From Microcystis aeruginosa NIES-843 (GTDB taxonomy: Bacteria; Cyanobacteriota; Cyanobacteriia; Cyanobacteriales; Microcystaceae), in contig NC_010296.1 in the NCBI RefSeq assembly GCF_000010625.1, positions 240,001 through 272,000 of the forward strand: 32,000 nt of DNA, given 5' to 3'. The position numbers and the translations under genes were made by a program. The notes under the pieces were generated by a model. The model had not been told where the DNA came from and ran no database searches. It was given only the letters and a program-made list of their open reading frames with translations. Positions 3 through 18,445 of this stretch are shown piece by piece. Position 1 is the stretch's first letter. Each line of letters begins with the position of its first letter.

Positions 3-641
3 ATACATGAAGTAATTGTGCCAGCATTTCAGATAGGCAAATATCCCGTAACCCAAGCACAGTATCAAGCGGTGATGGGATATAATCCTTCGATAGCGGC
101 ATATTATCCTTTAAAGTTTTCAGGAAATCCCCAGAACCCGGTAGAATCCATTAGTTGGTTTAATGCTCAAGCTTTTTGTGAAAACCTGAGCCAGTTAACT
201 GGAAAAAACTACCGTTTGCCTACAGAAACAGAATGGGAATATGCCTGTCGCGCTGGTACAGAAACCCTATTTAGTTTTGGCGATGATAAAGATAAACTAG
301 GAGATTATGCCTGGTTTCGTGCTAATTCAAATAATACAACCCATCCTGTTGGGGAAAAACAGCCTAATCCTTGGGGAATTTATGATATGCACGGCAATGT
401 TTGGGAATGGTGTGCTGATGAATATCATGAAAGTTATGTTAATAAACCAGAAAATATTAAAGAAAATGGCAGTATTCCATGGTATGGTGGTTATTTAAGT
501 ACCAAACCATCACTTCGTGGCGGCGCTTGTGACTCCTATCCCGGGCTTTGCCGTTCCGCATATCGCGGCGACAGCGATGTTCACGGCCAGGGACACGGTT
601 TTCGTGTTGTGTGCGATCTCCCCCAATCAGTTAACAGTTAA
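3..641 (+). CDS. FGE-sulfatase / SUMF1-EgtB-PvdO family domain protein, C-terminal part (5' end lies upstream of the window)
   Basis: Frame is open from base 3 (IHEVIV precedes the listed start at 18). Family motifs present: YPVTQAQY, RLPTETEWEYACRAG, HGNVWEWC, LRGG..CRSAYR..GFRVVC. Confidence 0.85.
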   Translation: MHEVIVPAFQIGKYPVTQAQYQAVMGYNPSIAAYYPLKFSGNPQNPVESISWFNAQAFCENLSQLTGKNYRLPTETEWEYACRAGTETLFSFGDDKDKLGDYAWFRANSNNTTHPVGEKQPNPWGIYDMHGNVWEWCADEYHESYVNKPENIKENGSIPWYGGYLSTKPSLRGGACDSYPGLCRSAYRGDSDVHGQGHGFRVVCDLPQSVNS

Positions 642-9434: not shown

Positions 9435-10090
9435 TGGACTCTCGAAAAAAAACTGAACCTCAACTGCGTGCCCTAGAAATTTTAAGCAACCTAAAGCGAT
9501 TATATCCAGAGGCAACCTGTAGCTTAAATTATCAAACTCCCGTGCAGTTATTGGTGGCAGTGATTCTCTCGGCACAATGCACTGATGAGCGGGTAAATAA
9601 GGTGACTCCTGCTTTATTCGCTCGTTTTCCCGATGCTAAATCCTTAGCTTTTGCCGAGCGAGAGGAGTTAGAAACCCTGATTCGTTCCACGGGATTCTAT
9701 CGCAATAAAGCTAAAAATATTCAGGGTGCTTGTCAAAAAATCCTCAAGGATTTTCAGGGGGAAGTACCCAAGACAATGGGGGAATTATTAACTTTACCCG
9801 GGGTAGCTAGAAAAACGGCTAATGTGGTACTCGCTCACGCTTACGGGATTATTGAGGGGGTGACAGTAGATACCCACGTTAAGCGCTTAAGTAATCGTTT
9901 GGGTTTAACTACTAATAACGATCCGGTGAAAATTGAACGGGATTTAATGGCTTTACTACCTCAACCGGATTGGGAAACTTTTTCTATTAGTATTATTTAC
10001 CACGGCCGGGCGGTTTGTAAAGCAAGAAATCCCGCTTGTTTTTCCTGTCAATTAGCCTCTCTTTGTCCCGCAGCAAACAGTAACCAGTAA
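9431..10090 (+). CDS. nth: endonuclease III
   Basis: HhH-GPD motifs (LPGVARKTANVVL, VDTHVKR) and a C-terminal 4Fe-4S cysteine cluster CKARNPACFSCQLASLC. Start overlaps the rseP stop (GTGATG). Confidence 0.95.
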   Translation: MMDSRKKTEPQLRALEILSNLKRLYPEATCSLNYQTPVQLLVAVILSAQCTDERVNKVTPALFARFPDAKSLAFAEREELETLIRSTGFYRNKAKNIQGACQKILKDFQGEVPKTMGELLTLPGVARKTANVVLAHAYGIIEGVTVDTHVKRLSNRLGLTTNNDPVKIERDLMALLPQPDWETFSISIIYHGRAVCKARNPACFSCQLASLCPAANSNQ

Positions 10091-10201
10091 ACAGTAAACT
10101 CACACCTGATAACTGAATCACTGATAACTGATAACTGTAAACTTAAAACTCACACCTGATAACTGGTAACTGAATCACTGATAACTGATAACTGATAACT
10201 G
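10075..10201. repeat. heptamer tandem repeats (AACAGTA / CTGATAA types) within a duplicated unit of about 50 bp
   Basis: Direct reading. ACTCACACCTGATAACTG..AATCACTGATAACTGATAACTG occurs twice. The repeat overlaps the nth stop and runs to the start of the next gene. Confidence 0.85.
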
Positions 10202-10825
10202 ATGTGGGGGGCTATAATGGGAAAAAATAGCTCATCCATCAATCTTATGAGTCAAGGATCTCGGCAAGAAATAAAAACCCAAGCAATAATCCTCGCTACC
10301 TTTGTGGCGATTTTTTGGCTGTTAGAGATTTTAGATCAATTTGTTTTTCGGGGCAGTTTAGACATTTTCGGGATTATTCCGCATCAAGTCATCGGATTGC
10401 GGGGTATTCTTTTCGCACCTTTCCTACACGGTGACTTTCCCCATCTTATCGCTAATACGGTTCCTTTCCTGATTCTCGGTTGGTTGGTGATGTTACAGGA
10501 AACCAGTGACTTTTTTATTGTTACCGGCTTGACTATGCTGGTGGGGGGGTTAGGAGTCTGGTTATTTGCTACTCCCGGATCCATTCATATCGGGGCAAGT
10601 ATCTTGATTTTTGGCTATTTAGGTTTTTTATTACTGCGGGGCTATTTCCAGAGAAATATTCCTTCTATACTCTTGTCAATTCTAGTCTTTTTACTCTACG
10701 GTGGCACAATTTGGGGCGTTTTGCCTTCCCGTCCGGGGATTTCTTGGCAAGGACATTTATTTGGTTTCCTAGGCGGGGTTTTAGCCGCCAAATTAATCGC
10801 CACCGAAAAGAAACATTATCCCTAA
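10202..10825 (+). CDS. rhomboid family intramembrane serine protease
   Basis: Multi-TM protein with HGDFPHLIANT, the GASILIFGYLG catalytic-Ser motif and the HLFGFLGG catalytic-His motif. Confidence 0.85.
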   Translation: MWGAIMGKNSSSINLMSQGSRQEIKTQAIILATFVAIFWLLEILDQFVFRGSLDIFGIIPHQVIGLRGILFAPFLHGDFPHLIANTVPFLILGWLVMLQETSDFFIVTGLTMLVGGLGVWLFATPGSIHIGASILIFGYLGFLLLRGYFQRNIPSILLSILVFLLYGGTIWGVLPSRPGISWQGHLFGFLGGVLAAKLIATEKKHYP

Positions 10826-14094: not shown

Positions 14095-14301
14095 GGGCTT
14101 GCTGAATAAATCTAAAAACCTTGTTGGATAAGGCTTTTAGACTTTTTTGACCTCAAAAAGTGCCGACCATTGGAGGGATCGGGGGTAAAATTCAGGTACT
14201 TTTTCCCTAAAAATTAGGTAACTGACTACCTCAAAATCGGTAAAACCCTACACCCCACACCCCACACCCTGCCCCCACCAACAAACTTTTTCAGCAGACC
14301 C
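14095..14301 (-). mobile_element. MITE family A, copy 2 (207 bp, inverted relative to copies 1 and 3)
   Basis: Ends GGGCTTGCTGAA...TTCAGCAGACCC. Flanking duplication TACATA (14089-14094 and 14302-14307). The internal tract reads CCCCACA on this strand. Confidence 0.8.
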
Positions 14302-14358
14302 TACATATCAGGAGAGGCAATAGGCACTCATGCAATAGGCAATAGGGGCAATAGATAA

Positions 14359-14869: not shown

Positions 14870-15798
14870 TCAGGTTAACTTGGTTCGGGATTTACTTGGT
14901 TGCCATGAAAGACGCTGTAAGCGGGAAAAATTAGTTGAAATACTATAAAAATCTTCGAGATGTTGTTTTAGTTGACGAATTGCCATACTACTATTGCGAT
15001 TGTCGGCAATTTCTCCACAGAAAGAAACTAAATTTTCTAGGTTAAAGTCAGGAAAATATTGACTTTGATGGCGAGGGATATACTCTTGATTCTCTAGCCA
15101 ATAAATGGGTTTGCTGAAAAAGCTTTTCCTGGGGGCAGGGTGTGGGGTGTGGGGTGTGGGGTGTGGGGTTTTATCGATTTTCAGGTGGTCAACTACCTAA
15201 TTTTCAGGGAAAAAGTACCTGAATTTTCCCCCCGATCCCCGCAATGGCTGGCACTTTTTGAGGGGAAAAAAGTCCAAAAGTCTTATCCAACAAGGTTTTT
15301 AGATTTATTCAGCAGACCCTAAATATAGAGATTTTTCTGACGATACAACCAAATTTCAGGCACTTGATAAGGCAGATAATCATCCACATTCGAGTAACTG
15401 GTGACATCAATTTCTAATACTAAATCGGGAGGAGGATCATTTACCCAGTCAATTCTGGCTTTCCCTGCTATAGCCGGCCAATGGTCAATATAAAAACTAT
15501 AATCTGGTTCAATACCACTTGTTTCTGGTAATTCCATGGTTACGGGAGTAAAAGCCTCGTACTCACGCCCCAGATAATCCAATAAGGTGATGATAATATT
15601 AGCAATTAAATGGGCATCACGTCCATGCTTAGGAAGTGGAGACATAAGCAAGACTTCTCCATTGTGATATTTGATTTTAGGCTGAGAATTGTCGCCCCTT
15701 TGCCGAGACAAAGTTTGATAATCTAGCCAAGTGGCAGGTAATCTCACTAAGGACCCCGCCGGTAGCTCGATTTTATCTAGTGAAACTAAGGCAAACAT
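14870..15798 (-). pseudogene. Uma2 (DUF820) family endonuclease gene split by a MITE
   Basis: N-terminal 159 codons (15322-15798) end in ..EIWLYRQKNLYI, with the stop TAG spanning the MITE end (15319-15321). The C-terminal 77 codons (14870-15103: YWLENQEYIPRHQSQYFPDFNL...) continue the family alignment once the MITE and one TAAAT copy are removed. Confidence 0.75.
15107..15319 (+). mobile_element. MITE family A, copy 3 (213 bp)
   Basis: Ends GGGTTTGCTGAA...TTCAGCAGACCC. Flanking TAAAT (15102-15106 and 15320-15324). Near-identical to copy 1 across (GGGGTGT)n and the internal hairpin. Confidence 0.8.
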
Positions 15799-18085: not shown

Positions 18086-18268
18086 ACAGTCACTAATTAT
18101 CTCCCTAAAACCATATTTTAAAGGGATGAACTATTTGTTTTCTCAGATACCCGGAAAAGATCATTAAACTAATCGGGTTTTTTAGAGAGTTAGCAGATAA
18201 TATAGCAGAATTTTTCCTTATAGTTCTTCTGCATGGCAATTTTGTCGAAATATCTAGGGTTTGTTTCG

Positions 18269-18405
18269 TGGGAGTGGGGAATGGGGAAGTGGGGAAGTGG
18301 GAAGTGGGGAAGTGGGAAGTGGGAAGTGGGAAGTGGGAAGTGGGGAAGTGGGGAAATTGAACTAAAACCCCAAAACCCCAAAACCCCAAAACCCCAACCC
18401 CCAAC
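18269..18405. repeat. tandem (GGGGAAGT/GGGAAGT)n array followed directly by (AAAACCCC)4
   Basis: Direct reading. The ORFs at 18105-18407, 18190-18381 and 18233-18475 are translations of this repeat. Confidence 0.9.
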
Positions 18406-18445
18406 ACCTAAAACCTGTCTCGGAGTCTGGGAGTCTCCTATCTCC

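Follow-up and report, generated by a model that had tools for sequence, protein, structure and literature searches.

The 3′ end of a chromosomal gene of Microcystis aeruginosa NIES-843, encoding a KAP-family NTPase joined to a C-type-lectin-fold (CLec) domain, carries a stretch at positions 513-611 of the window (by which we mean the whole 32-kb stretch of DNA analyzed) that is built like the variable region (VR) of a diversity-generating retroelement (DGR) target. We consider this stretch to be an orphan, or relic, DGR-type VR, with a probability of about 60%. Three features of a current DGR target were missing from it, namely a cognate template repeat (TR), the 3′ homology module and variation specific to adenines. 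A sequence-only reading of this DNA had proposed that the stretch was diversified by a DGR, and its homology to real VRs, the existence of Microcystis DGRs with asparagine-run TRs and its codon bias all bear this out, but its status as a current target is not supported. From its composition and homology, the DGRs and TRs present in the genus, its misfit to those TRs, the lack of local DGR parts and the pattern of its alleles, we infer that an ancestor was diversified by a DGR and that the copy is now inactive.

The segment at 513-611 (+ strand) encodes LRGGACDSYPGLCRSAYRGDSDVHGQGHGFRVV, with A-poor NNC/NNT codons placed between conserved framework residues. Adenine accounts for 12 of the 101 nucleotides at 512-612 (11.9%) compared with 32.9% at positions 1-511 of the same open reading frame (ORF), GC content is 60.4%, and among all 101-nt segments of the 32 kb this one lies in the lowest 0.22% for A and the highest 0.18% for GC. 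The abrupt fall in A and rise in GC described from the letters alone were thus confirmed, with A nearer to one base in eight than to the one in seven claimed, and the NNC/NNT codons listed between the anchors proved correct on re-reading. The third positions of the 33 codons are T14, C14, G3 and A2, that is, 28 of 33 end in C or T. When synonymous codons were redrawn for the same peptide, with usage taken from 15 long ORFs of the window, the observed counts departed from expectation for A (11 against 16.6, P=0.011), G+C (61 against 53.5, P=0.010), C-ending codons (14 against 7.2, P=0.006) and A-ending codons (2 against 6.6). The signature is real, and the compositional shift is owed partly to the amino acids (many G, R, C, S, and D) and partly to synonymous choice. 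Depletion of adenine together with NNC/NNT codons at variable positions is a feature of DGR VRs, and the synonymous bias is consistent with descent from a TR-templated sequence.

The 3′ part of the gene occupies positions 3-641 (+ strand), with its 5′ end beyond the window and its stop codon (TAA) at 639-641, and the ORF matches Pfam PF03781 (FGE-sulfatase) with E=7e-41. The same locus was retrieved from six Microcystis genomes by means of the neighboring 79-aa gene, and the orthologues in these genomes are 856-885 aa in length and carry a KAP-family P-loop NTPase at the N-terminus and an FGE-sulfatase domain at the C-terminus. In the full-length orthologue of M. viridis NIES-102 (L003 7016-9673; labels of this kind are ours for retrieved loci), these domains span residues 26-311 (KAP_NTPase, E=3e-34) and 652-876 (FGE-sulfatase, E=3e-48). 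The window is identical to NIES-102 over its first 2050 nt, after which single-nucleotide polymorphisms and indels appear. The window ORF is accordingly predicted by homology to be the C-terminus of a KAP-NTPase plus FGE-sulfatase (CLec) protein of ~885 aa. The gene occupies the same chromosomal site in seven strains, and its downstream neighbors (an antitoxin-like gene, dprA, thioredoxin, and ackA) are constant across strains. The VR-like stretch ends 10 codons ahead of the stop within the C-terminal CLec/FGE-sulfatase fold, which is the placement found in DGR targets. In one complete genome (CP177167.1, L006 7100-9679) the orthologous gene is uncalled, although its 3′ end is present, and it may be disrupted.

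The C-terminal 212 residues of the window ORF, used as a protein query, returned thousands of Microcystis CLec paralogues whose C-termini read RGGSW-xxx-P-xx-CRSA-x-R-xxxx-RR-xxxxxx-GFRVVC(GAGRTL/VFGRTL/DN) or …GFRVACVSPGL, with N, D, Y, S, F, H, C, G, I, L, and V at the x positions and almost pure NNC codons there in the DNA. DGRs have been listed for M. aeruginosa NIES-2549 [reverse transcriptase (RT) AKE65309.1, variable protein (VP) AKE65307.1, and several remote VPs] and NIES-4285 (PMC7517822 Tables S1, S3); for NIES-843, myRT gives group II intron RTs only and no DGR RT. A synthetic Asn-rich TR peptide query retrieved TR-spanning ORFs of Nostoc, Rivularia, and others, none of them from Microcystis. 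A Nostoc locus (L038) holds a complete DGR in the order VP-avd-RT-TR, and tblastn with its RT identified DGRs on Microcystis plasmids. Plasmid p1FD4 of M. aeruginosa FD4 (L039 5711-10312) carries MoxR, a long VP, avd, an ISMae4 insertion lying between avd and RT, the RT, a TR and a second VP, and plasmid p1 of NIES-2481 (L040 8001-8903) carries an unannotated RT remnant together with an intact-looking TR. With the FD4 RT as query and a look-up of clusters, the Microcystis RTs fell into at least three lineages, whose listed members lie on contigs of ≤47 kb. Two of these lineages supplied further loci. Two contigs from metagenome-assembled genomes (L046 and L047) bear avd, RT and TR, and two others (L044 and L045) bear a CHAT-NB-ARC/NACHT-CLec target, avd and RT with a TR truncated after CGTAACAAC. 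The Microcystis DGRs recovered here are thus borne on plasmids or short contigs and are often damaged, by insertion sequences or by truncation of the TR.

The recovered TRs, obtained as a by-product of this analysis, encode LRGGSW(G/Y)NNPNNCRSA(I/Y)RNNNNRRDN(R/N)NNN(N)GFRVVC(VFGRTL/GAGITL) and differ from one another in AAC-repeat number, with 12 or 13 codons between R and GF. Wherever NNC/NNT codons stand in the window, these TRs have AAC/AAT, and the earlier statement that relatives carry asparagine runs at these positions therefore holds true of the related DGR template repeats. Two TR patterns that had been guessed, TGCCGTTCCGCTAACCG and …GCNAAYCGNAAYAAYAAY, gave only chance matches or the GC-rich TRs of other organisms in viral and metagenome collections, because the Microcystis TRs have GCG-ATT-CGC or GCT-TAC-CGC at that codon.

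We compared the window copy with four Microcystis TR variants. The framework TGCCGTTCCGC (Cys-Arg-Ser-Ala; 549-559, + strand) is shared without change between the window, the bona fide Microcystis VRs examined and each of the four TRs. Aligned to the FD4 TR, the true VRs (both targets on p1FD4 and the one on NIES-2481 p1) show mismatches at 14-17 of its 34 adenines and at 2-3 of the 98 non-A positions, and no gaps are needed. When the window is aligned to the recovered TRs, 17-20 of 28-29 adenines and 29-30 of 93-94 non-A positions are mismatched, and 7-10 gap columns have to be introduced. It is 9 nt shorter than the TRs, having 10 codons between CRSAYR and GFRVV where these have 12-13, and the CGC-CGC framework is missing. 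Its framework is 69% identical to the TR, a level matched by the upstream FGE domain, whose DNA is 63-69% identical to that of the same paralogues, and the positions homologous to TR adenines are significantly more diverged (Fisher P=0.015 and 0.0004). The divergence pattern is what would be expected of an old paralogue with loop positions that were once randomized or are simply free to vary, and the window copy appears not to have been overwritten by these TRs since the paralogues split. No cognate TR of the same length, with ≥80% of mismatches at adenines, was found among the TRs recovered, in the window, in the flanks of the seven strains, in PLSDB or in viral contigs. All four recovered TRs are of the RR…GFRVVC(GAG/VFG) type, and the VCDLP type is not represented among them.

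The 3′ end of the stretch also departs from that of known targets. The boundary block CGGTTTTCGTGTTGTGTGCGATCTCCCC (GFRVVCDLP; 596-623, + strand) is near-invariant over the allele classes of the orthologues, but the known TRs have a different 3′ homology block (GGTTTTCGGGTRGTSTGCG-GTGCTGGGATTACTCTT or GTATTCGGGAGAACTCTT). In true or remote targets the 3′ end reads …GGTTTTCGGGTRGT.TGCG…GGGAGRACTCT.TAA-CCCTTTTTC…, which includes a CT-rich tract; the 3′ module …GGGAGRACTCTNTAA-CCCTTTTTC… is common to the five true or remote Microcystis targets examined, and a CCCGCC…GGCGGG hairpin lies next to it in L018 and L044. Neither 3′ homology resembling an initiation of mutagenic homology (IMH) site nor this shared downstream module was found in the window, which reads GGTTTTCGTGTTGTGTGCGATCTCCCCCAATCAG… and then runs into CAGTTAA heptamers.

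Searches for the missing DGR components were also negative. A TR inside the 32-kb window was rejected after BLAST (word size 7) and an adenine-tolerant sliding comparison, the best match having at least 26 non-A mismatches in 101 nt, and tblastn with the Microcystis DGR RT and Avd found neither in the window nor within ±10 kb of the gene in the seven strains. The statement that the window holds no TR or RT was confirmed by these results, and precomputed Pfam lists for the surroundings of the gene in the fetched strains contained no RVT_1 or bAvd. The window VR had no match at E≤0.01 in 72,556 PLSDB plasmids, a set from which the FD4 TR, used as a control, retrieved the expected cyanobacterial TRs and VRs. 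Viral contigs gave no match to the window-specific pattern, in which each base may be as in the window or A ("X or A"), or to the 3′ block of the KAP family. A scan of a genome collection with 20 fixed framework bases, the window's genome and NIES-102 being outside this collection, matched only the orthologous VR of M. ichthyoblabe, and the complete M. ichthyoblabe chromosome yielded no TR, though its own orthologous VR matched the X-or-A pattern.

Across strains the RGG-GFRVV stretch is the most divergent part of the gene, with a pairwise diversity of 0.22-0.31 vs. typically 0.01-0.1, and its 3′ flank is near-invariant and specific to the KAP family. Indels of 3-9 nt set the allele classes apart, as do differences at third codon positions, and one TR could not have produced them all; DGRs are not known to make indels. 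Four alleles are of the window type (those of the window, L041, L042, and L043). Their upstream FGE domains are separated by indels and by differences at many sites, and their VRs vary at only ~11 sites. Three of these sites are synonymous or in the framework (GCA/GCG, GGT/GGG, and CGT/CGG), and of the four that could be mapped unambiguously, reading by hand from alignments, one falls at a TR adenine. The VR of these alleles shows no more variation than the domain upstream of it, and the window and NIES-102 share an identical VR while differing elsewhere. Similarly, in another class (L005, L006, and L013) variability in the VR does not exceed that elsewhere in the gene's 3′ half, the whole of which is mosaic and variable between strains. 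Variation by substitution only and confined to TR adenines was not seen among the compared alleles, which show indels, synonymous changes and framework changes. Orthologue variation unrelated to TR adenines had been named beforehand as counting against a DGR, and the window-type alleles show such variation in part.

A similar composition occurs in a Microcystis phage. In gene product gp037 of Ma-LMM01 (L049 1483-2223) a VR-like stretch has 16.7% A vs. 32.4% in the part upstream of it, its codons are of the NNC type and its framework comes close to that of the FD4 TR, and we found no DGR in this phage; RT matches in sequenced phages amounted to 149 records, with no Microcystis phage among the matches listed. 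The sequence-only reading had held that an A-poor pattern in paralogues free of DGRs would speak against it, and gp037, from a phage with no detected DGR, is partly such a case. Its signature therefore suggests that VR-type composition travels with the module and outlives the link to a template. The gp037 protein is the phage "kinase," an FGE/CLec protein in which the VR-like stretch is internal, with ~70 residues beyond it. Two JGI metagenome contigs of 82.8 and 49.7 kb (L014 and L037) are phage-like, with tape measure, Mu F and capsid genes; the CLec proteins that they encode are short and have C-termini of the VR type, and no RT lies within 6-10 kb of them. No RT was found within that distance of any of three paralogous CLec genes (P0116, P0119, and P0084), two of which are on phage-like contigs. 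The P0116 protein is found unchanged in 70 blocks of the collection, its VR being stable over many samples, and L037 has two tandem CLec copies with identical VRs.

These results can be arranged into a history for an orphan VR. The segment at 513-611 would encode the ligand-binding loops of the C-terminal CLec domain, and the CLec module would have come from a family whose C-termini are written from AAC/AAT-rich TRs by adenine-mutagenic reverse transcription. The low A, the C/T-ending codons and the residues D/S/Y/H/C/G/V/L between RGG, P, CRSA, R, and GFRVV would then be present because of DGR ancestry. This copy would have become uncoupled from any template that we found, with a framework that diverged from the TRs as much as the rest of the domain did, and would have lost 9 nt relative to the TRs and acquired a different 3′ end. 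At present it would change by ordinary point mutation, indels and the exchange of alleles between strains.

The best placed of the alternatives, which we nevertheless regard as unlikely, is that 513-611 is an active remote target, rewritten by a trans-acting RT from a dedicated KAP-family TR (…GFRVVCDLP) located elsewhere in the chromosome or on a plasmid. Several points argue for this and weigh against an orphan VR. Trans-acting DGRs with remote targets are common in cyanobacteria, where such targets are the rule (PMC7517822), and DGRs do exist in Microcystis, partly on plasmids and with at least three RT lineages. A dedicated TR may be present elsewhere in the window's own genome, which was outside the scanned collection, and the collection scans relied on exact matches at 20-35 fixed bases with the "X or A" code elsewhere, so that a TR with a few non-A mismatches would be missed. 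The passage from the variable stretch to the invariant CGGTTTTCG… block sets a sharp 3′ limit to variability, and an IMH-type boundary would look alike. TRs themselves are polymorphic in length (12 vs. 13 codons from R to GF), and length classes alone are thus no exclusion. Finally, the class formed by L005, L006, and L013 differs mostly at first and second codon positions, with TGC/TAC/TTC at one site, and this pattern resembles site-specific hypermutation. Against an active target, however, the VCDLP type is absent from the recovered TRs, the window VR is unmatched in plasmids and viral contigs, and no TR for its own allele was found in the complete chromosome of M. ichthyoblabe. In addition, the window-type alleles include framework and synonymous changes with no excess over upstream variability, third positions differ between allele classes more freely than a single TR would allow, and two distinct strains have an identical VR. 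We are also doubtful of a more elaborate proposal, in which a TR family dedicated to the KAP sensor (…GFRVVCDLP), as yet undescribed and probably carried on a mobile plasmid of some strains, would rewrite the gene in trans when present, the C-terminal length classes would represent successive TR variants, and the window allele would be a snapshot frozen after loss of the element.

It also seems improbable to us that the stretch has no DGR history, and is instead a conserved Gly/Arg/Cys/Ser-rich FGE motif with diversifying selection acting on its loops and alleles shuffled by homologous recombination. Under local codon usage the same peptide is expected to have ~17% A compared with 33% upstream, the mosaic structure extends over the entire 3′ half of the gene, and indels separate the allele classes, all of which such a history would accommodate. 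Yet the synonymous bias, both in C-ending codons (14 vs. 7.2, P=0.006) and in A at third positions (2 vs. 6.6), goes beyond the constraints of the protein, the TGCCGTTCCGC framework and the spacing of variable and fixed codons are common to TRs and VRs of the same genus, and it is specifically the positions homologous to TR adenines that are saturated. Import of the variable cassette ready-made from DGR-diversified CLec paralogues by gene conversion, rather than diversification in place, would account for the occurrence of one window-type VR with upstream backgrounds that have strongly diverged, could draw on the many paralogues of the genus with similar frameworks, and is in keeping with the match of the L001-type allele to the 5′ part of the FD4 TR over 53 nt (79%), but is very unlikely, as the RR framework and the 3′ end by which the known target families are marked are both missing from every KAP-family VR and the 3′ flank is conserved and specific to the KAP family.

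An orphan VR at 513-611 can be placed relative to the cyanobacterial CLec VPs, remote VPs and non-diversified "VP homologs" cataloged by Vallota-Eastman et al. (2020; PMC7517822). It has the same fold, C-terminal position and A-poor NNC/NNT make-up as the VRs of these proteins (including those of Microcystis p1FD4 and NIES-2549), and shares with them the framework RGG…P..CRSA.R…GFRVV, in which TGCCGTTCCGC is identical. The window's protein is, like these, multidomain, with an N-terminal signaling or NTPase domain, and its gene lies far from any RT. The window differs from them in that no cognate TR was found, in a 31% mismatch at non-adenine TR positions and a 9-nt difference in length, and in its 3′ end, where the CT-rich tract and hairpin module are missing, and its allele variation is not adenine-specific. 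On any criterion stricter than 50% identity, the label of "VP homolog" suits the window stretch rather than that of VP or remote VP.

The second comparison is with the DGR-diversified NTPase-CLec proteins described as putative antigen sensors of multicellular bacteria, among whose NTPase types is the KAP NTPase (Doré et al., 2024; PMC10907252), and with related conflict systems (Kaur, Burroughs, Iyer and Aravind, 2020; PMC7159879). The architecture of the antigen sensors, a P-loop NTPase with a single C-terminal CLec/FGE-sulfatase domain, is that of the window's protein and was seen in full in the NIES-102 orthologue. The CHAT-NB-ARC/NACHT-CLec target in L044 belongs to a Microcystis-like DGR of this NTPase-CLec sensor kind. 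Such sensors adjoin a DGR or are demonstrably diversified by one, whereas the window gene has no linked DGR component. The KAP domain matches the PADLOC models PDC-S20, QatA, and PifA (E=2e-26, 7e-24, and 5e-16, respectively), and likeness to these defense proteins, QatA being that of the Qat system, resides in the N-terminal KAP NTPase domain. The alignment is limited to the first ~100 residues, however, and those proteins are without a CLec/FGE C-terminal domain. No partner genes of these systems were found among the neighbors of the KAP-NTPase/CLec gene, and the genes adjoining it are housekeeping or toxin-antitoxin genes. By analogy, the most likely role of the protein is that of an intracellular antigen sensor or of a component of a conflict system, and the stretch putatively works like the ligand-binding loop region of the NTPase-CLec sensors. 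The stretch is apparently a further, decoupled example of the known DGR-type VRs, and its novelty is modest.

Several other features surround the 3′ end of the gene. An inverted repeat, CCCCCAA/TTGGGGG (620-665, + strand), encloses the stop codon and an array of CAGTTAA heptamers that TRF also reports (628-660), and the DNA fold of 606-725 has z=-4.2. True Microcystis DGR targets have the CT-rich tract and the CCCGCC..GGCGGG hairpin downstream, from which this inverted repeat differs. The heptamer array was rejected as a DGR feature, such arrays being scattered throughout the window, and it is probably generic together with the inverted repeat. Farther downstream, the centroid structure and the sequence reveal a GC-rich hairpin, GGGCGAAT-TGC-ATTCGCCC, followed by TCTTT (695-713, + strand). 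Its 8-bp stem is perfect, it is located ~55 nt past the stop and is kept in L041, and the fold suggests that it is probably terminator-like or a repeated palindromic element.

Tandem arrays with a period of 7-8 nt occupy intergenic positions 628-660, 1353-1384, 10071-10203, 14245-14346, 15138-15169, and 18268-18437, with units that include CAGTTAA, GGGTGTG, CTGATAA (x13.7) and AGTGGGGA (x11), among others. Related heptamers of the AATCAGT type also follow the stops of the phage-borne CLec paralogues in L014 and L037. One array, of GGGTGTG, is carried by a 219-nt insertion (~1312-1530) that splits a PemK-family toxin gene (1198-1755) situated after the 79-aa antitoxin-like gene (969-1208). The direct repeat GCCCTAATTA is present on the flanks of this insert and the gene is intact in strain L001 (112 aa), and the insertion looks like one of the miniature inverted-repeat transposable element type that inactivates the toxin.

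The compositional signature of low A and C/T-ending codons between fixed motifs correctly flags DGR-family VRs from raw sequence. It persists, though, in copies uncoupled from a template, and consequently cannot show present activity when taken alone. For annotation, this means that many Microcystis CLec genes, including phage-borne ones, probably hold orphan VRs of this kind. The conserved chromosomal KAP-NTPase plus CLec gene, with several very different ligand-binding alleles across bloom-forming strains, fits the role of an immune sensor, and these alleles may bear on phage-host dynamics in Microcystis blooms.

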